The position numbers and the translations under genes were made by a program. The notes beneath the pieces were generated by a model. That model was not told where the DNA came from. It was given only the letters and a program-made list of their open reading frames with translations, and searched no databases. Below, one piece after another: positions 2,378 through 19,700 of a DNA stretch of 34,365 nucleotides. Each line of letters opens with the position of its first letter. Positions within the stretch are counted from its first letter, which is position 1. This DNA is from an uncultured bacterium (GTDB lineage Bacteria > Chlamydiota > Chlamydiia > Chlamydiales > SM23-39), in the NCBI GenBank assembly GCA_964441355.1, contig CAYTXY010000001.1, positions 1-34,365 on the forward strand, read 5' to 3'.

Positions 2378-2576
2378 ATTCTTTTAGTGTTTTTGTGAAA
2401 AATCAAAATTTATACTGCGACCGCTCAAAAAGTGTGAAAAATGCCAAGGAAGCGGCGCAGATTTTTGTGTCTGGAACGAGGGGCGTGTTCATAGACACGG
2501 TCCGAAGTGAAGACCAAAAATATGCTGCCAAGCTGACGCCGGCAGATTCACATTTTTTGGGTGAGAGCAGTATAGC

Positions 2577-3470
2577 ATGAGACGGCTTCTCCTTTTTTTC
2601 ATTTTGCTTGCGGCGAGTTTTACCGCCGGCTTTGGCGTGGCGCGCGGGAAGGTGGCCCAGCTCTTTGTCGCGAAGATCGCCGCCGCCTCCGATCATCACC
2701 CTCGGACCATGGAATTTCGCCCAACACCCTATCCTTTGGAAAATCGAAGTTTTCGCATCGTGATCGTCGGAAGAAACAATGGCGCTAACTTGGAAAAAAC
2801 CCTCCAATCGGTGTTTTTGCAAAATTATGAAAATTTCCGGATTTTGTATATCGACGACGCCTCCGACGATGGGAGCGGCGATTTGGCAAGAGACCTGATT
2901 TATGACAGCCCTATTTTTACGAAAATCCAATTCCATCAGAACGAGAAGCCGCTCGGCACGCTCGCCAGCCTGACAAGGGCCATTAGAGGATTTCCCGATG
3001 AAGAGATCGTAGCCGTGTTGCATGGAGACGATTGGCTTGCGCATGAATGGGTGATCGCCCGTCTCAACCAGTATTACGCCGATCCCGATCTTTGGCTGAC
3101 CTATGGAGAGGCTAGCGACTATCCGACCTATCAGCTTGGGAAAGCAAGGCCATTGGATGGAAAAGGCAAACCGATCCGCTCCCAGCCGCTCTCTACTACT
3201 CATTTGAAGACGTTTTATGCAGGGCTCTTCAAAAAGATCGACGATGCCGATTTGCAATACAAAGGGGAGTATTTTCAAGGCGCTGCGGATCTTGCCTTCA
3301 TGTTTCCGCTGCTTGAAATGGCCGATGGCCACTCCCAATGCCTTCAAGAAGTCCTCTATATTTGCAATAGGGACAGTTTGAAAACGGAGGACCGCGAGCT
3401 CCATGCATTTTGTGAAAAGCAGATCCGGTCGCTGCCGCCTCATGAGCCACTGACGGGCGGGTTCGAATGA
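2577..3470 (+). CDS. Family-2 (GT-A fold) glycosyltransferase with N-terminal TM anchor
   Basis: TM anchor LLLFFILLAASFTAGFGV, then the GT2 signature FRIVIVGRNNGANLEKTLQSVFLQNYENFRILYIDDASDDGS and HGDDWL. Confidence 0.85.
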   Translation: MRRLLLFFILLAASFTAGFGVARGKVAQLFVAKIAAASDHHPRTMEFRPTPYPLENRSFRIVIVGRNNGANLEKTLQSVFLQNYENFRILYIDDASDDGSGDLARDLIYDSPIFTKIQFHQNEKPLGTLASLTRAIRGFPDEEIVAVLHGDDWLAHEWVIARLNQYYADPDLWLTYGEASDYPTYQLGKARPLDGKGKPIRSQPLSTTHLKTFYAGLFKKIDDADLQYKGEYFQGAADLAFMFPLLEMADGHSQCLQEVLYICNRDSLKTEDRELHAFCEKQIRSLPPHEPLTGGFE

Positions 3471-5113
3471 GACCGAAATTTTTCTACTTGCTACCCATTT
3501 TGGCTGCGATTCTATTCGGATATTGGATGGGGGGAGGGCATGTTGCGAAAAAAGAGGAGAAGGTCGTCTTCAATGAGATACCCCATCCTGAGAGAGATTT
3601 CCCACTGACGGAAGAAAAGCCGTTTGCTCTGATCGTCTACGCCTACAAAAACGGCAAGATTTGCGAAAGGACGCTGAAATCGATCTTCGAACAAGAGTAC
3701 GACCGCTTCCGCGTCATTTTCATCGATGATGGTTCCAAGGATGGGACGTTTGAAAAAGTCCAATCTTTCGTCTTGGACAACAAGCAAGACCATAGAGTGA
3801 TCCTGATCCAGAATCCAGAGCGGCTTGGGGCCGTCGCTTGCCTTTACCGCGCGGCCGCGACATTGCATGACTTTGAGATCGCGATCCCTCTCGATGTCAA
3901 GGACTGGCTGGCCCATCCGAGAGTATTGGGCCGCCTGAATGCCGTTTACCAAAATCCAGATGTTTGGCTCACCGCCTCGGGCCCCATCCTTTACCCGAGT
4001 TATGAAAAAACGAATTGCCCATTGAATTTAGAGAACTTGGAGCCTCACATCCCCATCTCATTTTATTCGGCTCTTTTCAAGCAGGTCCGCCTCGCCGATC
4101 TTGTGAGGGAGGGCAGGTTCACTTTCGGCAAGGAGGCTTACGTCAGGCCGCTTCTCCAGATGTCTCAGGGAAGGCACCGCGTCTTGAACGAGCCCCTCTT
4201 CATCGCAAACCTTGCGAGATCTTGCAGGGAAGTGACGAGCGAGCCGCTCTCTTCTTATCAGGCTTTGCCCGAATTTCCAAAGAGCTCGGATGTTGAAGAG
4301 AGGGCAGACATCGTCCTCTTTTCCTGCGACCGCCCTTTGCAACTCTTCGCTTGCCTCGAGTCGATCCACCGCTACATGACCGGTTTCGAGAAGATCCATG
4401 TCCTTTGCCGTGCGAGAGAACCCAGATATCTGCAGAGTTACGAAAAGATTGCGGCGGAATTTCCCGAAGTGCATTTCGTGTTCCAGGGAAAAGAGGCGAA
4501 AAAGGATTTTAAACCCCTGCTTTTGAAAATCCTCTTCGACTCATCCAGCGAGTATGTCATGTTCGGCACCGACGACCAGATCGTTAAAGATTTTGTGGAT
4601 CTCAAAACGTGCATGGAAACGATGTCGAGAACGGGAGCCTACGGGTTCTACTTGCGACTGGGGTGCAATATCACCTATTCGTACCAAGTGGGCAAAGACC
4701 AGCCGGTGCCAAAAAGCGTCGATCTTGGCAAAGGGATTTATGCCTGGAATCTTAAAGCCGGAAATTGTGATTGGGATTTTCCCCATAGCGTCGATATGAC
4801 CCTCTTTCAAAAGAACATCTTAAAAGAGCCATTCGAAAACATGCGCTACAAGACTCCGAACAGCCTCGAGTTTTGCTGGGCCAAAGAATACATTTCCAAA
4901 CATGAGATCGGGCTTTACTTCGACCACTCCAAAGTGGTGAATATTCCACTCAACGTCGTGGGCCGGACGGGCAATCCGCATATGAACTACCTCACGGCTC
5001 CCGAATTGCAAACCAAATTCGAGCAAGGGCTCAAGATCGACATCGACCCGCTCTACCGCATCGCAAACTCATCCCCTCACTTCGAGTACTACCCCGAGTT
5101 TGTTCTGAGATAG
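3467..5113 (+). CDS. Two-domain glycosyltransferase: GT2 domain plus a C-terminal second transferase-like domain
   Basis: ATGA overlap with the upstream gene. TM anchor FFYLLPILAAILFGYWM. The GT2 signature FALIVYAYKNGKICERTLKSIFEQEYDRFRVIFIDDGSKDGT is paralogous to the upstream gene (DWLAHPRVLGRLNAVYQNPDVWLTASG vs DWLAHEWVIARLNQYYADPDLWLTYGE). A roughly 260-aa C-terminal extension (ADIVLFSCDRPLQLFACLESIHRY ... FGTDDQIV) is of unassigned family. Confidence 0.85.
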   Translation: MRPKFFYLLPILAAILFGYWMGGGHVAKKEEKVVFNEIPHPERDFPLTEEKPFALIVYAYKNGKICERTLKSIFEQEYDRFRVIFIDDGSKDGTFEKVQSFVLDNKQDHRVILIQNPERLGAVACLYRAAATLHDFEIAIPLDVKDWLAHPRVLGRLNAVYQNPDVWLTASGPILYPSYEKTNCPLNLENLEPHIPISFYSALFKQVRLADLVREGRFTFGKEAYVRPLLQMSQGRHRVLNEPLFIANLARSCREVTSEPLSSYQALPEFPKSSDVEERADIVLFSCDRPLQLFACLESIHRYMTGFEKIHVLCRAREPRYLQSYEKIAAEFPEVHFVFQGKEAKKDFKPLLLKILFDSSSEYVMFGTDDQIVKDFVDLKTCMETMSRTGAYGFYLRLGCNITYSYQVGKDQPVPKSVDLGKGIYAWNLKAGNCDWDFPHSVDMTLFQKNILKEPFENMRYKTPNSLEFCWAKEYISKHEIGLYFDHSKVVNIPLNVVGRTGNPHMNYLTAPELQTKFEQGLKIDIDPLYRIANSSPHFEYYPEFVLR

Positions 5114-5118
5114 GTGGT

Positions 5119-5622
5119 CTTCTGAAAAAGATCAGCGAGAGAGGAAAAATACTGGCAAGGGCCAAAAAGTCTCTTTTGCTTGAAGCTTCTGAAAAAGATC
5201 AGCGCAGAGAAAAATAGCACAAGGTCGAGAGTCCGCAGAGAAAAAAAATTAAGAGGCAGGACGGGACCCTGCCCTGAGTTAAGGAGGTGGATTCAGCCTT
5301 TTATCTCATGACAAATCATCGGATTCCTTATTTCAAGTGTAGTGCCAGACAGGTTTGAAAGGCGATTTCAAATGCCAGGTCCCTGCTACTTATGTACCTC
5401 AATTGATGCTGCAAAGCTTTTGCCCTTATACCTGAAATACCAAAGCCGTTGGAAACTCCTTCACTCAGGGCAGGGTCCCGTCCTGCCTCTAATTTTTTTT
5501 TCCTCTGCGAACTCTCGACCTTGTCCGATTTTTCTCTGCGCTGATCCGTTTCAGAAGCTTTTAGCAAAGAGGCTTTTTGGCCCTTGCTAGCAATTTTCTC
5601 TCTCGCTGATCCGTTTCAGAAG
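5119..5622. repeat. Foldback element: about 170-bp imperfect inverted arms (5119-5288 and 5455-5622) around a 166-bp spacer
   Basis: The reverse complement of 5455-5622 aligns with 5119-5288 along its full length with a few mismatches or indels (by-eye alignment). Each arm contains an internal direct duplication starting CTTCTGAAAAAGATCAGCG. The element fills the whole gap between the stop at 5113 and the ATG at 5630. Confidence 0.9.
5469..5501 (+). terminator. Possible intrinsic terminator inside the right arm of the foldback element
   Basis: GC stem GGCAGG (5469-5474) / CCTGCC (5482-5487) with a 7-nt loop, then TCTAA and a run of nine T (5493-5501). The mirror copy in the left arm would act on the minus strand. 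The 5-nt gap between stem and T-run weakens the call. Confidence 0.35.
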
Positions 5623-5629
5623 CTTTTTA

Positions 5630-6451
5630 ATGACTCAGTTTATGGGGAATTTCGTATTATATCTTCCTATGCATGGGAAGTTTTTGTTTCTGGGAACTGG
5701 CGCCTCGACGGGTGTGCCCGTCATCGGATGCAGCTGCGCCGTTTGCTCTTCGAGTTCTTCCTACAACAAGAGGCTCCGCCCGGCAGGGCTTATCCGGATC
5801 GGGCAAAAGTCGCTCCTGATCGACGTCGGCCCCGATTTTCGCCAGCAGGCGTTAAAGTTCAAAATCAACCGCCTCGATGGCGTATTGCTGACCCACACCC
5901 ATTACGACCATATTTCCGGCATCGACGAGCTTAGAACCTATTTTTTAATGCAAAAGAAGGCTATGCCATTGCTTCTCTCCAAAGAAAGCGCCGAGGACTT
6001 GGCGGTCCGCTACCACTACCTCTTCAAGTCGGCGGGGCCTAAAGAATCATTGACTGCCCAGCTCGATCTCCATATTTTGGCAAAAGAGAGGGGAGAGGTC
6101 GACTTTTTGGGGGAAAAGATCGGCTATTTCAGCTATTTTCAAGGAAAGATGAGAGTCACTGGGTACAGGATTGGCCATTTTGCCTATGTTTCGGACATCA
6201 AGGATTACTCCGAGGAGATTTTTGAATCGCTTGCCGGCGCTCACACCTTGGTCGTCAGCGCCCTTCGGGACGGGGCTGCCAAGCTGATGTTTTCTTTGGA
6301 CGAGGCGGCAGCTTTTTCTAAAAGAGCGGGAGCCAAGAGGACCCTGATCACCCATATGAACCATGAGGTGGACTACGAGAGCGTAAACCGGAAACTCCCC
6401 TCGGGTGTACAATTAGCTTACGATGGATTGGAGATCGAATTTGGAATCTGA
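5630..6451 (+). CDS. Metallo-beta-lactamase-fold hydrolase, PhnP-like phosphodiesterase type
   Basis: HxHxDH motif in LLTHTHYDHISGIDEL. The N-terminal FLGTGASTGVPVIGCSCAVCSS resembles PhnP/COG1235-type MBL enzymes. Start is uncertain (ATG at 5630, 5642 or 5669). Confidence 0.85.
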   Translation: MTQFMGNFVLYLPMHGKFLFLGTGASTGVPVIGCSCAVCSSSSSYNKRLRPAGLIRIGQKSLLIDVGPDFRQQALKFKINRLDGVLLTHTHYDHISGIDELRTYFLMQKKAMPLLLSKESAEDLAVRYHYLFKSAGPKESLTAQLDLHILAKERGEVDFLGEKIGYFSYFQGKMRVTGYRIGHFAYVSDIKDYSEEIFESLAGAHTLVVSALRDGAAKLMFSLDEAAAFSKRAGAKRTLITHMNHEVDYESVNRKLPSGVQLAYDGLEIEFGI

Positions 6452-7748
6452 AACAATCGTTCGGGAGGGACGCCTCCAAATTCTCGGCAGCCAAGAAAAG
6501 AGGGCGCTCCTTGTCGGGGCTTATTTGACTGCGGACGCTAAAGACCAAACGATCGAACAGCTCGATGAACTGGAGAATTTGACGCGGACGTTTGGTCTCT
6601 CAACGGTGCTCAAGCTCCCGGCGCCGATTCGGGAATTCAACCCGGGGACGTTTTTCGGCAAAGGGAAGGTGGAAGAGATCCGGCAGCTTGCCATAGAGCA
6701 TAAGTGCGATATCGTCATTTTCGACGATGAGATCTCTCCTCAGCAGCAGCGCAACCTGGAAAAGATTTTAGAAAAAATTGTCATCGACAGGACGGAGCTG
6801 ATCCTTGGGGTCTTTGCGCAAAGGGCGCAAACGAAGGAAGCGAAGCTCCAGATCGAGCTCGCGAGCGTCCGCTACCAGATGCCCCGTTTGCGGCGCCTTT
6901 GGACCCACTTGAGCCGTCAAAGGATGGGCGGCGCTGGCGGCGGATACCTGAAAGGGGAAGGGGAAAAGCAGATCGAGATCGACCGGCAGATCTTAAAGCA
7001 CAAGATCACCCAGATCCAAAAAGAGCTCGAACAAGTAATAAAACATCGCCAAACACAGCGGCGGGAGAGGGAAAGGACAGCCATTCCAACATTTGCGATC
7101 ATCGGCTATACCAACGTCGGCAAATCGACCCTGATGAACGCCCTGACCGATGCTGGGGTCTTGGTCGAAGACAAGCTCTTTGCCACTCTCGATACGACGA
7201 CCCGCAAATACCTCCTCTCGAACAAGCAGCCAATCCTCTTGATCGACACCGTCGGGTTCATCCGGAAAATTCCCCACCAACTCGTCGCCGCCTTCAAGAG
7301 CACCCTCGAAGAAGCGGTCCGGGCCGATATTTTGCTGCACCTGATCGATGCGAGCAATCCGGTAGCTCCCGCACAATCTGAGGCGGTCCTTGGCATCTTG
7401 AAAGAGCTTGGAGCAGCGGGCCGGCCGATCATCACGGTGCTGAATAAGATCGACCAATGCAAAAGCCGCCTCGACATCGACCGTCTCCGCTTCAAATATC
7501 CCAAAACGGTCGAAATCTCCGCCCTGAAGCAAACAGGGTTCGATCGATTGCTGGAACTCATGATCCGTGAGACCATGCTGCTGCGCAAGAAGGTTCGCCT
7601 CCGCGTTCCCCAAAGCCAATACGCCTCTCTGAGCGAGGTGATGAGGGATGGCAAAATCATCACGAGGGAATATGATGAGAACGATATTCTTCTCGAAGTG
7701 GAGATCCCAGTCCATCTAGAACGAAAAGTCGCTCATTTCGAGGTATGA
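6423..7748 (+). CDS. hflX: GTPase HflX
   Basis: G1 GYTNVGKST, G3 DTVGF, G4 NKID. HflX-type N-terminal domain with glycine-rich GGAGGGYLKGEGEKQIEIDR. Overlaps the upstream gene by 29 nt. Confidence 0.9.
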   Translation: MDWRSNLESETIVREGRLQILGSQEKRALLVGAYLTADAKDQTIEQLDELENLTRTFGLSTVLKLPAPIREFNPGTFFGKGKVEEIRQLAIEHKCDIVIFDDEISPQQQRNLEKILEKIVIDRTELILGVFAQRAQTKEAKLQIELASVRYQMPRLRRLWTHLSRQRMGGAGGGYLKGEGEKQIEIDRQILKHKITQIQKELEQVIKHRQTQRRERERTAIPTFAIIGYTNVGKSTLMNALTDAGVLVEDKLFATLDTTTRKYLLSNKQPILLIDTVGFIRKIPHQLVAAFKSTLEEAVRADILLHLIDASNPVAPAQSEAVLGILKELGAAGRPIITVLNKIDQCKSRLDIDRLRFKYPKTVEISALKQTGFDRLLELMIRETMLLRKKVRLRVPQSQYASLSEVMRDGKIITREYDENDILLEVEIPVHLERKVAHFEV

Positions 7749-10770: not shown

Positions 10771-13700
10771 GGCTTACCCTTCCGAAGTTGCTGATAAATT
10801 TTGCCAAGCGCACTATTTTTATAATCCCGTTTCGACTGCTCCTTGAAGGCGCAAATGGACTCTTTAAAATGTTTTTCCATTTCTTCGATTTTGCCTTTTT
10901 TCCCACTGAAGGAAGAGGTGCTTGCTGCGCTGCCCAGCCAAGTTTTTAAAATTTTCTGTTCTTTTTCATTGTAATGAACCTGGCCGTCGAAATACTTGGC
11001 TTGGACAAGAAGGCGAGCTAGCTCAGGGTTTTTCTCCAATTCGTCCTTGGGGATCGGCGGATTGCTTTCATAGAGGCTATTCAAACCGAGATCCCCGATC
11101 CATACCTGCACGTCATCGCCGCCAGCCCGTGGGAAGCCGGGGTGGTCGCGGCTAAATAAGTTTACCCACCAGTTCTTGTGGGTAAAATAATCTGCCATAT
11201 ACGCGTCTTTTGATAAGTCTGGATCTTTGCCCTTGCGCGCGAGCCCCTGTTTTTCCTGGAGGGCGGCTTTGAAGGCTGCTACATCGAAGGGCTCCAAGGC
11301 GATGAGCTTGAATTGCTTCGTCCTTCGGTTTTTTACGATTATAATGTTTTGCAAGGGTTTCTGGAATTGGCTGAAGGGGGCCCTAAGAGTAGGCGTGCTG
11401 CGTTGAAAATTGGAGCTGAGTAAAAATTCCTCATCGAAGATGGGCATTTCAGAGACGATTTGGTTCGGGTTTATAAAATTCGCGCCGTGCCAAGATAAAT
11501 ATGAACTCTTTTCATACAGTGCCGACTTTTCGACGTTTCCAGCGTCGAGCGCCCACTGGTAATGGGTCGCGGGATGAACGTCAAGCCGTTTTGCTTGGCT
11601 TTCTTCTTGCTGCATCATTTGGTCCTGCTGCTGCTCTTGCTGCTGTTCTTGCTGGACCTCGACCTGCTGCTCCATGCCGGAGGAGAAAATCGATTTTCTC
11701 ACCTTGTCAGGCAGCTCCGCTCGGCTCACCGTCTGGTTCATGAGGGAGCGGAGCTCATTTTTATATTGAGCAAGGCCGCCAGTCAGTCCGAGCCGATCGA
11801 TGAGCCGATCGATTTTATCCCCGTAGGCCGCCTGAGCGTCAACGAGGTCGGTCCCTTGGCCGTAGTTGAGGAAAGGGGAGATCGTCTGTTTCTGGAAAAA
11901 GAGAGGCTCGACCAGTTTGACAAGATCGTTGATGAATCCGATATTTTTAAGCTGAAGGATTTTTCCCAAAAGCCATTCTTCGACGACGCCGCTGAGTTTG
12001 TGAGTCGTTGCGACCTCGTTGTCTTCGCCTTGGCGGCGCGCTTCGTGCTGGATCAAATACCGGAGCACTTGTTTCTCACCCACATGGGCATCCGGCGGAA
12101 GGCCGAGGAATTCCCGGATGGCCAGCGCATCGCTCTCTAAGAGGGCGATTTCGATCCTTTGTCCTGCTGCGATCTTCCTCATCCGGCCCACAGCCTGGAT
12201 GAAATCGCGCATGATCATCTTCTTGCTCACTGTTACTAGGGCAATGGCGTTGATCGCTTGTTTGATGTCGATCCCGAACGTATGTTTTTGATCGTAGATC
12301 GTGAGCTGTTTTTGGACGGGGCAGGAGCTTCTTTCCAATGGGATAAGCGTCGATTCCCCTTTTTCCCAAATCATCGCGTCTTCTTCTTTATCGAACACGA
12401 TGGCGCACTCCTCGGAGGATCCGTTCATTATGCGGGACTCCAGCCACTTCTTGGCCGTTTCTTCCAGGTCGCATTCTTTGAGGGTGCCGCCGGCGTCGAT
12501 GAGCGCCTTGATATGGCGGTATTTTGAGCCGTTGATCAACGCGTCCCTGAGTTCTTTTGCGCTCGGGAAGACCGTTACTTTGTCTTTCGCTTGGGCATAG
12601 GCTAATGCGACGATTTGCCCCCTTGCCCCCTTTTCGAATTTGGGGGGGAGGTTGTCATGGAAAGCGCCTGAGTCCCACAAGGCTCCGGCGAACCCTTTTG
12701 TCTTCTTGTAAAGAAAGCCAAAGATTTGCGAGGTGGCTTTGAGGTTTTCCGGATAGACCTTCGCTTGCGTGAGCACATATTTTCCAAGAAGGGCAAATTT
12801 TTGTTTCGGATCGGCGTCGAGAACTTTCATTAACCGGTCGACGATGTCGGGATTGAATAAAGGAAGATCGTCCCTCTCTCCGAAATAGCTCTCGAACTCG
12901 ACATGGGCTTTCGTCTTATAATTGGGATTTTTCTTGACCTCTTCAGAGTTCTCTTTCATTTCCTTCAAGGCTTTTCCTTGAAGGTCAAAGACGAGTTTTT
13001 CGACGATCGGCCGTCGAACCGCCGGCTCTTTCAAATAGGCTTGGATCGTTTCGTCGACCCGCTCAAACGGGTCGCTGCGTTGCGAGCCGAGATTCGGCGC
13101 GTTGCTGCCGCTGAACGGATCTGCGAGGATGCTCGTATTGGTATGGAATCCGTAGTTTTCCCCAAAATTTTTCTCCAAGGTGAGAGGAAGGAGGATGTTC
13201 AGCTGCCCTCGGATGAGGCCGAGCTGGTCGCGGAGCTCCGCATCGGAAATTTTTTCGACCCAAATTTCTGCCTCGTGAGTCGGGTCATTGCCCAGGAAAT
13301 AGTTCTTGAGCCGCTCTTTTTCGGGGGCGGAACAATGTCGGTAGAACTGATGCAGCAAGGGGAACTCATCCCCATGTTCTAGAAAGGAGAGTAGTTTTGC
13401 CGTCAAGGCCGGCTTGATTTTATTCTCGAAAACTTTCGGGGTGCACGCCTTGGCTTTGCCCGGGAAGAAATCAAAGCTTGCGATTTCGAGGATCTCGGGG
13501 CTTGTCAAAAGCTCATAGATTTTTAGGGTAAGCGCGAGGTAGTTTTCTCCGATCGGCTGGGCCTCTCCGGCTGGAAAGTTGAGCTCGGAGCGAGGATTGA
13601 AGATCATGTCGGCCTCATCGCAAAGCACGTAGCCTTTTTCTTTGAAGAGTTTGAAGATCTTGCGCATGAGTTCGGCTTGCATTTCCCGCTCAGGGGTAGG

Positions 13701-16700
13701 AGACTGGTTCCAGAGCCGCAAGATCCGGTAGAATTGGTTGCGGAACGCTTTGATATCGCGGTCGGTGGTCATGACGAATTCCCGCTTTACGATGGCGTCC
13801 TCGAACATCTTCAAGAGGCCTTTCAAGTTCTCTTCGCTCAAATCGGTATTGATATTGAATTGGAACCGTTTGACCTTTTGCATAAAGGACTTGCCGAGAA
13901 TTTGTTCGCCTTTCCTCATATTGTCGAGGAGCGCTTCGGGCATGATGGCCATGCAAAGGCGGGTGCCGTCTGCGCACCAAAAGGCAAATGTCGGCAGTTG
14001 GTAGGTAGTTTTCCCTTTTCCTACCATCATTTCTTGGATCAAATTCTCTAGCACGAGCGCTTCCAACGACCCTTCGATTTCGACCCCGAGCCCGGGCAGG
14101 TTTTTGATCTGTTCTTCGAGGTAATAATAGCCGTTATGGTATTCGAACACTTTCAAGAAGCGGTTCTTCTCGGTGGGGATGTAATGCCGTTTGGTGCTCG
14201 CCGCCTGAACGAACTCCGTTAGGGCCAGCTGGAGGAGCGGATCGTCCTCTTTCAAATGGCTGACCCGTTCGACCTCCGCCATTTTTTCGATCACTCTGGC
14301 CCTTTGGCCGTTTTGGATCGCCAGATCGAGATAAAGGTCGATCCCCCGGTCGAGGTTGGCGATATCCTCCGGTTTCAATTCGGGATTTCTCGACTTGAGA
14401 GTCCCGAGCTTATTTTTCCTATAGAGGACGATCAGTTCGTTCAATTCGATGGGCGCCGACGCATCGCCATCGGACGGGGGCTGCGAGCGGGCCGCTTTTT
14501 CAGGATCATTGGGGGCTTTCGCAAAGAGGCGCAAGATGGCAAGTTCCGCCCCGGCAAGCGCTTCCCGCATGTAATAGTGGGTTTTTTCGAGTGTGATGCG
14601 CTTTTCTTGGAAAAGAGCCAGATTTTTCAATGCGTAATGATTTGTATCCTTAGATTCAAGATAGAAGAGGGCGTCTTTATAATAGAAGTCGAACGCCTTC
14701 TTTTCGAGCGAAGTGGTCCCTTGTCCAAGAAGTAGGTCTTGGAGGTCGGCCTCGGCAAGTCCGCCGTTCGCTTTTTTAGCGGCGGTGACAAAATCGAGAG
14801 GATCATCAAGAATGGGTTGCAGCAAGAGCGAGTTAGGAGCGGCCGTTTTTCCGTTCCCTACCGGCGCGCGAAGCCATTGATGGATCTGATTCAAATCGAG
14901 CTTTTTGCCGGAGGCTAGAAAGGCGATGGCATCTTTGGCCCGATCGGGATTTTTTATTTTCAGGTCTTTCAGGATTTGGAGATCTTTCGGATCGATATCG
15001 GAAATTTCAAGGAGCGCCAGTTCTTCATCGAGGTCCAGGCGGAAGAGGCCGAGCTTGGGAAGAGTTTTGAAATATTCGTCTGCGACCTGTTTGCCTAATT
15101 TGCCCCCCTCGTTTTGGACTAAGGCAGCCTGGGCGAGGGCTCGAAGCGCGGTCAACGGGGGAGCGTTATGGGAGACATACTTGTCGAGGCCTGAGATCAA
15201 TTGGAAGATCTCCTTTTCTTTTTGAGGGAAAGGACGGCTGCTTCCGCCAAACTCCCTCAGGAGAGCGAAGGCGTCTTTATATCGCTTTTTGGCACCGTGG
15301 ATCATCGCGAGATAAAAGTTCGCGCCGAGATCGTTCGGATTGGAAAAGCGCTTGGCGCCATCGAACTTGTCGTAGGTGTAGTAGGATTGTTTGCTTTTCT
15401 TTTCATCCAACTCTTCGGAGTTTCTCTCGAAGGCCAGGTGAGACGAGAGGGAGCTTCCCTTGAAGGGGACGAGGGGTTGGGCGGCCAAAATGAGTTTTTC
15501 CTCCCCCCTTTTATTTTGCAGCAAGAGGAAGTTGGGCAAGTGAGCGCCTAGTGGATTGATCTGACGGCGCTTGAGATGATACCCGGCGAATTGCTCCGAT
15601 TTAAAAAGAGTTCCGTCTTTGACAAACGATAGGGCGAATCTTGGAAATTCGATCCGGGCCGTCTCTTTTGTCTGCGGGTCTTTCCAAATCATCGTTTGGG
15701 TGGGGTCTTCGAATTGCAACGCCCAAGAAAAAGTCTTTTTTTCTTTCGCAAGGTCGACGAGCTCGAGAGGCGCCATTCCGCCTTTGGCGGTTGTGATTTT
15801 TCTTAGGATTTGATGGGAACCCTCGATTTTCAAAATTTCCGAGCTGCCGATTTCTGCCCGATATTTTGGCTGAGAGGTCTTGGCATCGAGGATGAGCATT
15901 TCTCCCTTCCCGTGCCAATGGGTATGCCCAGCGATCAGGGGCAAGGCGGGCAAGATCCATTTATCTTTTTCCAACGTTGGGATCGCAGAGTGAATCGCAT
16001 GGACCAATTGATCGAGTTCCGATTTTTCTTTTTTCTTGCCGAGAACCACATCGCGTGGAACGTATTGATACCAGCCGCGGGGGAATTTTCTTTGGATCAC
16101 ATACTGTCCGTCCGGTTGCCGGATGAGGCGGTTAACGGCCGTATGCTGATCAGTAAATTCAAACGTGGTGAGGGAGATCGCCTTGCACCGGAATTCCTTG
16201 TCATATAGCTCCGCAAAGACGGGGCTGCTCAGCGCGTCGGCGGGAAGGGGAATGCCGCTGATTCCAGGGGCGATCACGAGCCCCTGCTGCAAGTCGAGGA
16301 TCGTTCCATCTACAGCCGTAAAGACGAGAGGGTTGTCCTTGGATTTCGTAACGTGGGGGCTTTTCGCCAAGGAGGGATAGACTTCCCGGGCGATCCGGTC
16401 TAAAAAAGCGGGGTCGGTTTGCGTGGCTTTCAAAATGGCGGGGGCGAAACGGACAAGGAGCCGCTTAAGATCCGCAGCGAGGAGCGGGTCGACCGTAACA
16501 CCCGACGGCGGGAAACTATGATAGAAAAGGACGTGGCGCAAGAAATCTTCCGCTTCGCCGGCCCCGAGCGTAGCTTTCGCCAATTTCTGCTGAGCGAGAA
16601 GCCCATGGATCACCCCTAAAGATTCGGGAGGCGCCCCAACGAGAGCCCTCTTCAAGGTGGACTTTTCCCCGTCTGCAAGGGAGGTGAAAAATGGGGGCGC

Positions 16701-19700
16701 CGGATGATTTTTGTAAACTGCTGGATGATATTGCCGGGCCTGCAGGCTGTATTGGCCAAGGCGCGAGGCTAGAGAGAGAGCGAAATCAGATGCCGCATGG
16801 TTGCCGATTTTCGAATTCAGAAGGTACTCGCCTTCCACGAATTCGGCCAGTTGCCGCTCCAATTCGGGGCCCCGGTTTTTCATCGCCAGCTCATCGCTGA
16901 GCAGCGGCGCGTCGAAGAGGAGTTTTAGACAGTAGGTCTGCAGGTCAGGGCGTTGGAGAAGGTTCGGCTTTTTCCGGAAAAAAGAAAGGGTGTTGGCGAT
17001 TTGCACCGCAGGCTCGGTACGGAGCGACGCGAGCTCTTCATATTCTTGTTTCGTGAGATATTTCTTCAGTTCGTCGATATCTTGGACCATGACGACATTG
17101 AGGTCGTAGATATTCCGTCCCGCTTCGGTGATGCCAGGGTAAAACGACCTGAAGGATTTCGATGTGGAGGGGAAAAATTTACCGAGCAGCTTTTGGAAGA
17201 AGTTTTCAAAAGGATCCCAGTGGCCTCCCTCGATCCTTGTCAGGTGGCGCCCTTCGATCTGTCTGATGACCTCGTCTACGACAGGGCGCTGGGAATGATG
17301 GAATTGGTGGGCCTTGTCGGACCCGTCGGCAATCTGGGGATTGTCTTGGAAAACGGATTCGTCGATCCCATCGACTTTGGGATAGATGAACCAGCCTTTT
17401 AACCCCAAAAAGGAGTAGATCGCGCCGACGGCCGGGCTGAGTTCGTTAGCCGCGTCAACCCCTTCGAAGCTCACCTCGTAGGATTGTTCGGTCTTCTTGA
17501 ATCCTGACGGTTTGACGAAGGTCCCGCGGAAAAAATATTCGGCGTTGAAAGCGAGTCTGCGGGCGGCATAAAACGCCTTCGGAAGAAAGCTGCCGGTCAG
17601 CATTTCCTTGTATATGCTCACCTCCGGCATTTTCGTTGGGAAAGAGGGGACGAAACGGTCCAAATAGTTTTTAAGATGCCTGCCCTCCAAGATGAAGGAT
17701 TGGCTGAGCTGTTTGACGATATCGGGGTTTTTGGCGATTTCGTCTGCCAACGTTCCTTTGCCGAATAATTGATCCAGCATCACGGCCCCTTTGAAAACAT
17801 TCTCGGACATCTCGAAACCGCCCATCATAATTTTGGGCGTGGCGACGAGATCCCCGGTGAAAAAGGAGGAAAGTCTCCGTTTCACCGGGGACAAATTCGT
17901 TTCGAATAAGGAATCGCCGTCTCTGTGTCCTTCAAAAAGACTTTGGAACGCTGGATTTGCTAAGTGCTGTTCGAGGGCCTTCATCCGCTTTTCGAGCTTT
18001 GGGTCGCCGAGTTGATAAAAGACGCCGCGGTTGAAGACGTAGGGGGCGATTTCCTTCAAGGGCATGTGCTGGTCGTTCAGATGGGTCGATGCCGGAAGCT
18101 TTTCCATTAACCGGTCGGCAAGGGCCATCGTTTCCATCATGAGAAGCCCCGACTCGGCGTCGGGAAGGCGCGGGACGCTCGCATCGAAATAGCTTTTGAA
18201 ATAGAAGTGGCTGATTGTCTCCAAAGAAAACAGAATTTTTTCCGCCATTTCAGGGGTCAATCCCTTCCAGAACATCTCGTCTAAGGCCGCTAAATTGAAA
18301 CGGTCGAAGAAGGATTTCACCGAGAAGACGATCCCGTCGTAGTTTTCATTTTTGTATTCGGCTGTCAATTGGGCTGCGTAATCGAACATCCTGCTTATGT
18401 TCGAAAGGGCAGGGCTCCATCCGGTAAAATCTTCGATCAGCTTCAATTTGGCAAGCGGCGGCGCAGCGTCGCTGACAGCATCAGAGCGGTCGGGAAGAGC
18501 GATCGTTTCTCCCAGTCCCCCGTAGATCGGTTCGGTGCTGACGGGAGGGATCTTTTCGGCGAGCTCACGAAAATAGGCCGACTCCTCTTCTTTGATCCTC
18601 GCTTTCACTTCGCCTAAAAGGGAATGGGCGTAGAGGAATTTTTCTTTAGGGACGACGGCGTTATCCAAGAGTTGACGATGGAGGATCTCAAGGGCGGCTT
18701 TATTCAAGTTCAAGAAAATTTCCGGCTCCGTTTCAGCCAATACCGGACCCTGGCTCAAATGGACGAGGCTCGCCAGTTTGATGTCGGCGGCGGCATCCCC
18801 TTTGTCTTTGAAGTAGGTTTCCCAAACTTCCCAAGGATTGTTGAAAAAGGAGACGGAAGGGGCTGCGCTGAAATGTTTTTTAATAAAATCGTCGAATGTC
18901 CACCCTTTCTGCACGACAAAGCCGGACATCGCGGCGATCGATTCCGCAACGTCTTTGCCTCGGGTTGCCATAGTTTGCTGCGCTGTCTGCCCTAGCCGCG
19001 TTGCTAGGCAGGTCAACAGCGGGGTCTTATCAGAGCAACCGTTTAGTGAATCGTCCCAATTTTGGCTGAGAAGGGAAATCAAGGGTGTGAGTTGATTCGC
19101 CTCTCCCACAGCGCTTGTCGCTTTCAGTAAATCTTCCAAAAATTCGGGCTTCAACAATCGATCCCGCGGGATCTCTTTGAGGAGCACGTCGTTTTTCCCT
19201 TGGTAGATTCGAACCGAGTAGGCGGCCCCTTTTTTTGACTTTTCGATACGGAGGAGGGCTGTCGCCTCTTTAAAAAATGATTGACCTTCCATCAACGAAA
19301 TGATGTCTTTGAGAGGCTGTCCGGCATTGACCCTTTGTTGCAGTTGGTTGATGTTGCCCAAAATCGGTTGTTCGACAGTCAAAGGAATAAAAACGGCGCT
19401 TAGCTGATTCGCATCCAACGCATCGAGCCGGCTGGCGAGCTCGCCCCGGAGCTGAGCGCTCGCCGATTTCACAACTACGTCGTATTCATAACTGGAGGTA
19501 AGGAAGCGGACGATGGGATAGCGCATCATTTGCTCTCGGAAATTTTCTAAGAGCTTTCCGAGCGCCTCCAGGTCGGATAGGGCGGATTGGAGTTCCAAGT
19601 CTTTTATTTGAGATAAGAGCGGTTTGAGAGAAGCTGTGAAGGGGAGGAAGCCTGGGGTGTCGAGTTTTGTATTTGGGCCGAGGTCCTTCGCAAACATCGC

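Follow-up and report, generated by a model that had tools for sequence, protein, structure and literature searches.

A probable SecA-like motor module in a giant DUF3638-family protein encoded beside two-transmembrane proteins in a bacterium of the Chlamydiae

Introduction

What kind of nucleotide-driven motor lies in the C-terminal third of a giant bacterial protein, and what might it act on? The question is raised by a stretch of 34,365 nucleotides from an uncultured bacterium (GenBank assembly GCA_964441355.1, contig CAYTXY010000001.1), hereafter called the window, whose minus strand carries an open reading frame (ORF) for a protein of 3196 residues. An earlier note on this DNA had described positions 12080-14120 as an SF2/DEAD-type (superfamily 2) ATPase core that resembled SecA-type motors and, perhaps, the P-loop module labelled DUF3638/DUF3645 in giant eukaryotic proteins. 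Here we report that this segment is probably the nucleotide-binding core of an 860-residue, SecA-like SF2 module (a "DEAD motor"), and that its gene stands in a conserved operon with genes for small proteins bearing two hydrophobic, presumably transmembrane (TM), segments.

The literature on DUF3638, DUF3645 and DUF6606, searched by name and by accession number, yielded incidental mentions only, and no paper assigning a function was found; the finding is thus an additional member of a known, functionally uncharacterised family. "SecA-like helicase-related domains" in endosymbiont effectors have been mentioned in passing (Zhang et al. 2012, PMC3482391).

Results

The 3196-residue protein is, judged by its sequence, a full-length member of the DUF3638/DUF3645 family of giant proteins. 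Residues 2104-2270 matched the Pfam model DUF3638 (PF12340) with an E-value of 3.1e-13; the score of 50 bits exceeds the curated cut-off of 31, and it rose to 52.3 bits when the module alone was scanned. All 14 giant relatives tested matched DUF3638 and one of them matched DUF3645; weak Pfam matches to DEAD (2e-3) and ResIII (7.5e-3) were likewise seen in one of the 14. In the window protein the models DUF3645 (PF12359), SecA_DEAD, DEAD, SNF2, Helicase_C and ResIII gave no match at E<=10, and DUF3638 was the sole Pfam match at that threshold over seven segments of the giant. The proposed resemblance to DUF3638/DUF3645 proteins therefore proved right, together with the homology to eukaryotic giants described below, even though the DUF3645 model itself found nothing in the window protein; the SNF2 and DEAD helicase profiles that had been named as a check were equally silent.

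Pfam scans across the 3196 residues revealed no nucleic-acid-binding domain and none of the DUF6606, thioredoxin, RanBP zinc-finger or ubiquitin domains. Sequence searches of the PDB with the whole protein and with a family profile returned nothing relevant, and NCBIfam and PADLOC were blank for the giant and its five neighbours, so that nothing points to a known defence system. We also considered, and dropped, a relationship with the viral-tegument-like deubiquitinase (VTD) giants of Simkania and Waddlia: the VTD paper mentions no such P-loop modules, and no deubiquitinase domain was found in the window protein.

The size of the family became visible when a profile built from three sequences of residues 2041-2900 was run exhaustively with HMMER, which recovered 4243 representative proteins (50%-identity clusters) at E<=1e-3 and 1240 at E<=1e-30. 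This search was needed because word-indexed searches for homologues were very lossy, returning 2 matches in a first attempt and 14 in a second. The best 150 relatives, from Logan and JGI, are mostly giants of about 2500-4300 residues, with some 30 shorter (partial) sequences among them, and most carry most or all of the 860-residue module at roughly residues 2000-2900. The bacterial status of what we call the bacterial-type branch rests on eight loci.

Within the module we located the motifs of an SF2 enzyme (Table 1). The Walker A sequence GKGKTT, enclosed by LIQEMMVGKGKTTYQLP (residues 2106-2122), and the DEAD sequence, enclosed by GYVLCDEADMIFNP (residues 2242-2255), were found by script on the translation exactly where the earlier note had placed them, and the spacings it had given, about 130 residues from motif I to II and about 470 from II to VI, agree with the approximately 130 and 475 that we measured. 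The arginine pair that it had read as motif VI is real and invariant, although the position it gave (residue 2721, nt 12174-12197) is a few residues off: GRMR occupies residues 2724-2727 (nt 12177-12188), within DFIQAVGRMRKIAAGQ (residues 2718-2733, nt 12159-12206). In an alignment of 14 giants, G2113, G2115 and K2116 of motif I, as well as D2621, G2623, G2695, D2697, Q2721, R2725 and R2727 of lobe 2, were invariant. Across 52 sequences this still held for G2115 and K2116, for D and E in motif II, for the aspartate of IDAGG and for Q..R.R in motif VI; motifs I, II and VI are thus present with the catalytic lysine, the Asp-Glu pair and the arginine finger(s). We rejected a chance occurrence of these motifs on account of the significant DUF3638 match and the residues invariant across relatives. 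The consensus sequences in Table 1 come from an alignment of 97 modules.

Motif III is the position at which the window protein departs from its family. GFTGT is found in about 70-90% of the family, and its glycine is invariant in 52 sequences; the window reads GFAGA, which is shared by its 91%-identical orthologue at locus L001, and other members of the clade keep GFTGT.

The fold was predicted with AlphaFold2 from an alignment of 36 sequences covering residues 2041-2900, and the resulting model has a mean pLDDT (predicted local distance difference test) of 88.8 and a pTM (predicted template modelling score) of 0.85. The model shows two RecA-like alpha/beta lobes, a helical insertion and, beyond lobe 2, a long helix, and the whole module comprises N-terminal helices, RecA lobe 1 with the insertion, RecA lobe 2, the long scaffold-like helix and further helices. 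In module numbering, the strands of lobe 1 extend to 223 (the strand ahead of DEAD at 202-207), the insertion spans about 225-495, two strands lead into GFAGA at 515-519, lobe 2 covers about 540-715, and the long helix at 721-761 is followed by the remaining helices. The predicted fold and the conserved motifs support the reading of the module as an SF2-type two-lobe P-loop motor.

The model also relocates the unusual part of the protein. The earlier note had placed a very large insertion between the lobes, whereas the extra residues, about 270 of them, interrupt RecA lobe 1 between motif II and motif III; lobe 2 itself is compact, with an ordinary size. The insertion is common to the family, including a fungal protein, and is not peculiar to the window protein. 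It also contains the counterpart of DUF3645: by BLASTP, the DUF3645 domain of a protein of the fungus Hypoxylon (P0162, residues 2351-2383) aligned onto window residues 2400-2432, ENYGFHTNTSILADPFSGSNAPNLGSQRSDPFE, in which Y2402, G2403 and P2421 are invariant, and P2414 nearly so, among the 14 giants.

SecA is an SF2 protein whose preprotein cross-linking domain is inserted at this place, motif II lying before it and motif III after it, and whose lobe 2 is followed by a long scaffold helix. When the model was compared with the PDB by Foldseek, ranks 1-13 were all occupied by SecA or SecA2, from Bacillus subtilis, Escherichia coli and Mycobacterium tuberculosis, with E-values of 4.4e-9 to 4.8e-5, about 880-1000 alignment columns and template modelling (TM) scores of up to 0.44. 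The first match outside SecA was Caenorhabditis elegans DRH-1 at 1.5e-3, followed by CasDinG, MDA5, Dicer-2, INO80, XPD and UvrB, down to 3e-2. The model thus predicts, with high confidence, a motor of the SecA-like and not of the helicase-like type, and the 41-residue helix directly after lobe 2 appears to occupy the place that the helical scaffold has in SecA. Local sequence contexts can be set side by side as well: IAEMRTGEGKT in SecA (the E. coli sequence, checked against 2fsf_A) and EMIMGSGKT in the family at motif I, and DEVDSILIDEARTPL in SecA and DExD..LN.R.E.NF in the family at motif II. The SecA resemblance that had been proposed thus finds its support in structure; neither SecA_DEAD nor sequence similarity reached significance. 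The window protein does not belong to the SecA family, but, if the model is right, its mode of action may be like that of a SecA.

Named eukaryotic members of the family came from the second indexed search, for which a profile of 36 sequences was used. A Leishmania infantum protein of 4946 residues, called "ubiquitinyl hydrolase 1" in UniRef, matched the module profile with E 1.9e-117 and contains DUF3638, DUF3645, thioredoxin-like, RanBP zinc-finger and ubiquitin domains, and the 3251-residue protein of Hypoxylon cercidicola (P0162), which carries DUF6606, DUF3638 and DUF3645, matched with E 7e-54. In direct comparison, BLASTP aligned the window module colinearly with the Hypoxylon protein from Walker A to beyond motif VI (module residues 65-731, E 3e-11), and lobe 2 was 34% identical to that of the Leishmania protein (E 5e-21). 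These alignments identify the Leishmania and fungal DUF3638+DUF3645 proteins as clear homologues of the window motor. Furthermore, a full-length profile of the 14 giants matched eukaryote-type proteins upstream of the motor (profile positions about 1456-1776): a region at residues ~1450-1780 is kept in the Leishmania protein and in other DUF3645-positive proteins, with E-values of 1e-12 to 5e-21, so the shared architecture extends beyond the ATPase. In the window this region lies at about 15000-16000, holds W1558 and aligns to the consensus IELPRFGLSF and LEN..G..K.LIP.

It had been suggested that the locus might hold a eukaryote-like giant NTPase in a bacterium. In a crude neighbour-joining tree of 106 modules (six of them eukaryote-type, that is DUF3645-positive; midpoint root, no support values), the six DUF3645-positive sequences formed a clade of their own, apart from that of the window. 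Because the motor is not nested among the eukaryote-type sequences in this tree, "eukaryote-like" is to be taken as membership of a shared family, in a Chlamydiae host, with no demonstrated recent transfer. The separate clades argue against a recent transfer of the window gene from a eukaryote to a chlamydia.

Table 1. Coordinates and sequence features of the giant gene, its motor module and the two-TM paralogues (aa, amino acid residue; nt, nucleotide; x and dots, any residue)
Feature	Position in window (nt)	Strand	Family consensus	Window sequence	Basis or remark
Two-TM paralogue 1, 234 aa	21036-21740	minus			First gene of the conserved operon
Two-TM paralogue 2, 233 aa	20354-21055	minus			Stop overlaps start of the giant by 4 nt
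Giant ORF, 3196 aa	10767-20357	minus			ORF list and translation; full-length homology to relatives of 3000-4000 aa
Region ~aa 330-540, site of the His-Asn-Cys cysteine-protease-like domain in many relatives	18738-19370	minus			Triad and core unrecognisable in the window protein
ATPase module, aa 2041-2900 (860 aa)	11658-14237	minus			Conserved whole in relatives; AlphaFold2 model
Upstream of motif I			FEY...R..Q	FEY...EEQ	R replaced by E
Motif I / Walker A GKGKTT, aa 2113-2118	14004-14021	minus	EMIMGSGKT	EMMVGKGKT	Located by script
Motif II / Walker B DEAD, aa 2247-2250	13608-13619	minus	IDExD..LN.R.E..F	CDEADMIFNPRSELNF	D2247 and E2248 invariant; MIFNPRSELNF next
Lobe 1 insertion, ~270 aa, ~aa 2265-2535, mostly helical	12753-13565	minus			Secondary structure of the model and colinear conservation; boundaries approximate
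DUF3645-equivalent segment, aa 2400-2432	13062-13160	minus		ENYGF...DPFE	BLASTP against Hypoxylon P0162; LLPLTL motif just before
Motif III position, aa 2555-2559, after ~270 aa	12681-12695	minus	L..N.Q....LF....GFTGTLWN	GFAGALWD	Both threonines of GFTGT replaced (GFAGA)
RecA lobe 2, ~aa 2580-2755	12093-12620	minus	IDxGG, KGVVF	IDAGG, AIVF	Strand/helix pattern of the model; holds IDAGG, AIVF and motifs V and VI
Motif V, aa 2692-2698	12264-12284	minus	YDQ.HTTG.DI	HTFGIDI	G2695 and D2697 invariant
Motif VI, aa 2721-2727	12177-12197	minus	LRDLLQ.V(W/G)RMR	QAVGRMR	Arginine pair R2725/R2727
Helix of 41 residues directly after lobe 2, aa 2761-2801	11955-12077	minus			Model helix 721-761
Two-TM paralogue 3, 311 aa	9835-10770	minus			Start overlaps stop of the giant by 4 nt
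Two-TM paralogue 4, 259 aa	9059-9838	minus			4-nt overlap with the preceding gene

The genomic setting supports a bacterium of the Chlamydiae, an environmental chlamydia, as the host. A scan of GTDB yielded four loci, all in metagenome-assembled genomes of Chlamydiae, and with one of them the window shares 91% nucleotide identity and gene order over 18.6 kb. Wherever the contig of a clade locus spans both flanks (the window, L001, L003, L004 and L008), two or three genes for proteins of about 235 residues stand ahead of the giant gene and two for proteins of about 260-390 residues come after it; the truncated contig of L002 shows the two downstream paralogues. The start and stop codons of the clade operons overlap by 4 nt, which suggests coupled translation of the five-gene operon. 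The motor itself is 45-90% identical across the clade. Ahead of paralogue 1 a promoter-like site, a consensus match only, is found on the minus strand at 21799-21770.

The small proteins share one layout, namely an N-terminal FL.EN.P..NL, a hydrophobic segment, a loop of about 25-40 residues, a second hydrophobic segment and a helical tail starting D....R...L..EY. Both hydrophobic segments are seen in the aligned paralogues, and a crude hydropathy scan finds both in only some copies; the loop has two cysteines in most copies and lacks one or both in some. No Pfam, NCBIfam or PADLOC model matched these proteins, and the family has about ten database matches, all beside orthologous giants in Chlamydiae. 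One of its members, P0178, 85% identical to paralogue 1, is labelled "YecT (DUF1311 family)" in JGI. No Pfam family, DUF1311 included, matched paralogue 1 at E<=0.01, and the label is probably a mis-annotation.

More distant bacterial relatives stand in other surroundings. The relative at L005 (P0155) lies among genes for the eukaryote-type domains RasGEF, F-box and RRM (4538-6560, 23386-24921) beside ordinary housekeeping genes, a mixture that would be expected of an amoeba-associated intracellular bacterium, and the relative at L007 adjoins genes of the mevalonate pathway.

Toward the N-terminus, many relatives carry a domain that the window protein has not kept in recognisable form. It is marked by GGW..GHA, then YN.G.G and, after about 95 residues, Q.SGTCSW, and a pattern search found this His-Asn-Cys signature in 65 of the 125 relatives longer than 2500 residues (e.g. 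P0014, P0029 and P0030), as well as in the DUF3645-positive protein P0157 of 5087 residues; the triad residues are invariant in an alignment of 25 motif-bearing relatives, and a profile of the domain detects its core in the Leishmania protein. When the domain was modelled from P0029 (core pLDDT >90), its only PDB matches were LegA15, AnkD and AnkH of Legionella, with E-values of 2.5e-6 to 1.3e-4. AnkH has a cysteine-protease-like domain with a His-Asp/Asn-Cys triad and the patterns rGHa, D/NRg and GNCSWANV (PMC6712400), and a later study showed that LegA15 employs this cysteine as an atypical GTPase (PMC9757750). In the window protein and its clade neither the pattern search nor the domain profile found the triad; the profile matches only the downstream helical part of the window protein (residues 543-1138, E 1.6e-28). 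By these searches, the window clade has lost the core of the enzymatic N-terminal domain.

At the other end of the protein, the motor is followed by a Gln/Glu-rich linker, QQVEVQQEQQQEQQQDQMMQQEE (residues ~2897-2923, about 11580-11660), and then by a C-terminal domain, about 270 residues long, with the motifs PF..FQKP and LLVQAKYF.G. This domain has no Pfam match; it is kept in bacterial-type relatives and weakly matched in eukaryote-type ones (E ~1e-3).

Other genes of the window were noted in passing. Upstream of the operon, across a gap of 97 nt that holds the promoter-like site, lies a minus-strand gene (21838-23262) for a Cys-rich protein of 474 residues with one hydrophobic segment; since it is kept only in the closest orthologous locus, at 79% identity, it probably lies outside the conserved operon. 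Divergent from it, on the plus strand (23350-24978), is a gene for an AAA-family ATPase of 542 residues, with its AAA domain at residues 294-426 and no Pfam match in the N-terminal ~290 residues. Elsewhere, a long ORF on the minus strand (2403-3443) is overlapped by another on the plus strand (2577-3470). Only the plus-strand ORF has a Pfam match (glycosyltransferase family 2), and the minus-strand ORF is therefore probably spurious.

Discussion

We favour, with somewhat better than even confidence, the view that the DUF3638/DUF3645 giant carries a SecA-like, ATP-driven clamp module that acts at a membrane with the four two-TM proteins. ATP would bind between the lobes (K2116, D2247/E2248 and R2725/R2727), and its hydrolysis would open and close them, moving the insertion against lobe 2 and the scaffold helix. 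Insertion and scaffold helix could in this way clamp a bound polymer and move or remodel it, and by analogy with SecA the polymer would more likely be a polypeptide than a nucleic acid. Because the operon joins the motor gene to four two-TM genes, the motor probably works at a membrane together with these Inc-like (inclusion-membrane) proteins; the likeliest site would be the inclusion membrane, after type III secretion. ATPase activity, the polypeptide substrate, the complex with the small proteins, secretion and location are all properties that we infer.

Several observations weigh against the SecA-like clamp. The link to SecA comes from the predicted structure and not from sequence, because hhalign, the family profile and Pfam give no significant SecA match: an alignment of 97 module sequences compared with E. 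coli SecA by hhalign gave a local match of 20 columns (E 0.034, probability 1.5%), the family profile did not retrieve SecA from the PDB at E<=10, and the Pfam models SecA_DEAD, SecA_PP_bind and SecA_SW gave no match to the window protein at the same threshold. The one hhalign stretch aligns a 20-residue SecA segment with the stem and GFTGT of the family, and hhalign against the single sequences of E. coli SecA and human eIF4A produced short local matches only. The TM-scores to SecA are modest (0.33-0.44), and the insertion is mostly helical and larger than its SecA counterpart, the preprotein cross-linking domain of SecA being about half its size. The degenerate motif III, GFAGA, could weaken the coupling of hydrolysis to movement. 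In addition, the distant bacterial relatives at L005 and L007 lack two-TM neighbours.

Alternatively, the module could be an SF2 helicase or translocase of nucleic acids, of the RIG-I/Dicer, DinG/XPD or SNF2 kind, in which the insertion would serve as an accessory nucleic-acid-binding domain. We consider this unlikely. It would account for the presence of SF2 motifs I, II, III, V and VI, for the weak DEAD and ResIII matches in one of the 14 relatives and for the helicases among the Foldseek matches at 1.5e-3 to 3e-2, yet the 13 best structural matches are all SecA, with E-values from 30-fold to more than 10^5-fold better than that of any helicase; moreover, Pfam scans of the giant show no nucleic-acid-binding domain in its 3196 residues, and the DEAD, Helicase_C, ResIII and SNF2 models are silent on it. 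A further possibility keeps the SecA-like motor and makes the four paralogues, with their eight helices, a channel: a dedicated translocon, comparable to the accessory SecA2/SecY2 systems, which would export or insert cargo at the bacterial or the inclusion membrane. That SecA is the best structural match, that the motor gene and the four membrane-protein genes overlap and stay together in all Chlamydiae loci of the clade, and that the cysteine pair in the loop of most copies suggests exposure to an oxidising compartment would all fit such a machine. We nonetheless hold it to be quite improbable, given that the relatives at L005 and L007 have the motor without such neighbours, that the small-protein family is confined to the clade, that nothing resembling SecY or a signal-peptide-binding groove was identified and that 2000 N-terminal residues would be left unexplained.

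It is also conceivable that the enzymatic functions of the family have decayed in this clade and that the giant is mainly a large structural or adaptor effector. Both the replacement of GFTGT by GFAGA in the window and its closest orthologue and the undetectable His-Asn-Cys core of the protease-like domain point in this direction. Loss of the motif III threonines in SF2 enzymes usually uncouples hydrolysis without abolishing it, though, and the key residues elsewhere, namely the lysine of Walker A, D and E in motif II, G and D in motif V and Q/R/R in motif VI, are intact and invariant; the 45-90% identity of the motor across the clade further implies purifying selection. We regard a scaffold of this kind as highly improbable. 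At the opposite extreme stands a more ambitious proposal, which we offer as a long shot: the giant motor and its four two-TM partners would form a membrane machine not described before in environmental chlamydiae, in which a polypeptide clamp, driven by ATP and anchored in the inclusion (or bacterial) membrane, pulls, threads or extracts proteins, and the thousands of DUF3638 giants of bacteria and eukaryotes would represent a second, non-Sec lineage of SecA-type protein-remodelling motors, coupled in many members to an AnkH/LegA15-type Cys-His domain.

The SecA-like clamp, which remains our preferred reading, would matter beyond this locus. The DUF3638/DUF3645 family is very large, consists mostly of giants of about 3000-5000 residues and ranges over fungi, kinetoplastids, ciliates, microsporidia and, as reported here, intracellular bacteria. 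For a family that has so far been an anonymous DUF, a SecA-like motor, an insertion at the place of the substrate-binding domain of SecA and the pairing, in many members, with an AnkH/LegA15-type domain (cysteine-protease-like or atypical GTPase) lead to two testable hypotheses: that the substrate is a polypeptide and that ATP drives the clamping. As regards chlamydial biology, the four Inc-like paralogues in the conserved operon make the giant and its neighbours candidates for a large effector complex where host and symbiont meet. The predicted SecA-like fold, the clade-specific membrane-protein operon and the lost enzymatic N-terminal domain are the three features that stand out.

How, then, does this locus compare with known systems? 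With the eukaryotic DUF3638/DUF3645 giants, for which, as for the window-type proteins, no published function was found, it shares a homologous and colinear motor that includes the insertion, as well as the region upstream of the motor, and it resembles them in total length and in having its motor in the C-terminal third; it differs in that the Pfam DUF3645 model finds no match in the window protein and in that the window gene belongs to a bacterial operon with two-TM proteins. The Legionella proteins AnkH/LegA3 and LegA15/AnkD resemble the relatives of the window protein in the patterns GHA, YN.G.G and SGTCSW, which correspond to rGHa, D/NRg and GNCSWANV, whereas the window protein and its clade have no recognisable core or triad and no ankyrin repeats.

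Chlamydial Inc proteins are typified by a pair of hydrophobic segments set close together, and the flanking proteins, in a member of the Chlamydiae, show in their alignment two nearby hydrophobic segments between soluble N- and C-terminal parts. They differ in the loop between the segments, which is about 25-40 residues long and usually contains two cysteines; that of classical Inc proteins is a shorter, hairpin-like turn. As for SecA and SecA2, the window module is set apart from them, besides its insertion, by being embedded in a protein of 3196 residues and by having no identified SecY partner, wing domain or C-terminal zinc-binding tail; Pfam and NCBIfam scans showed no SecY-like gene in the operon. 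In common with SecA and SecA2, the predicted structure has two RecA lobes, the first of them interrupted by an extra domain between motif II and motif III and the second succeeded by a long helix, and the two groups are alike in the local contexts EM..G.GKT, DE.D with an arginine after it, G[MF]TGT and T..G.DI.

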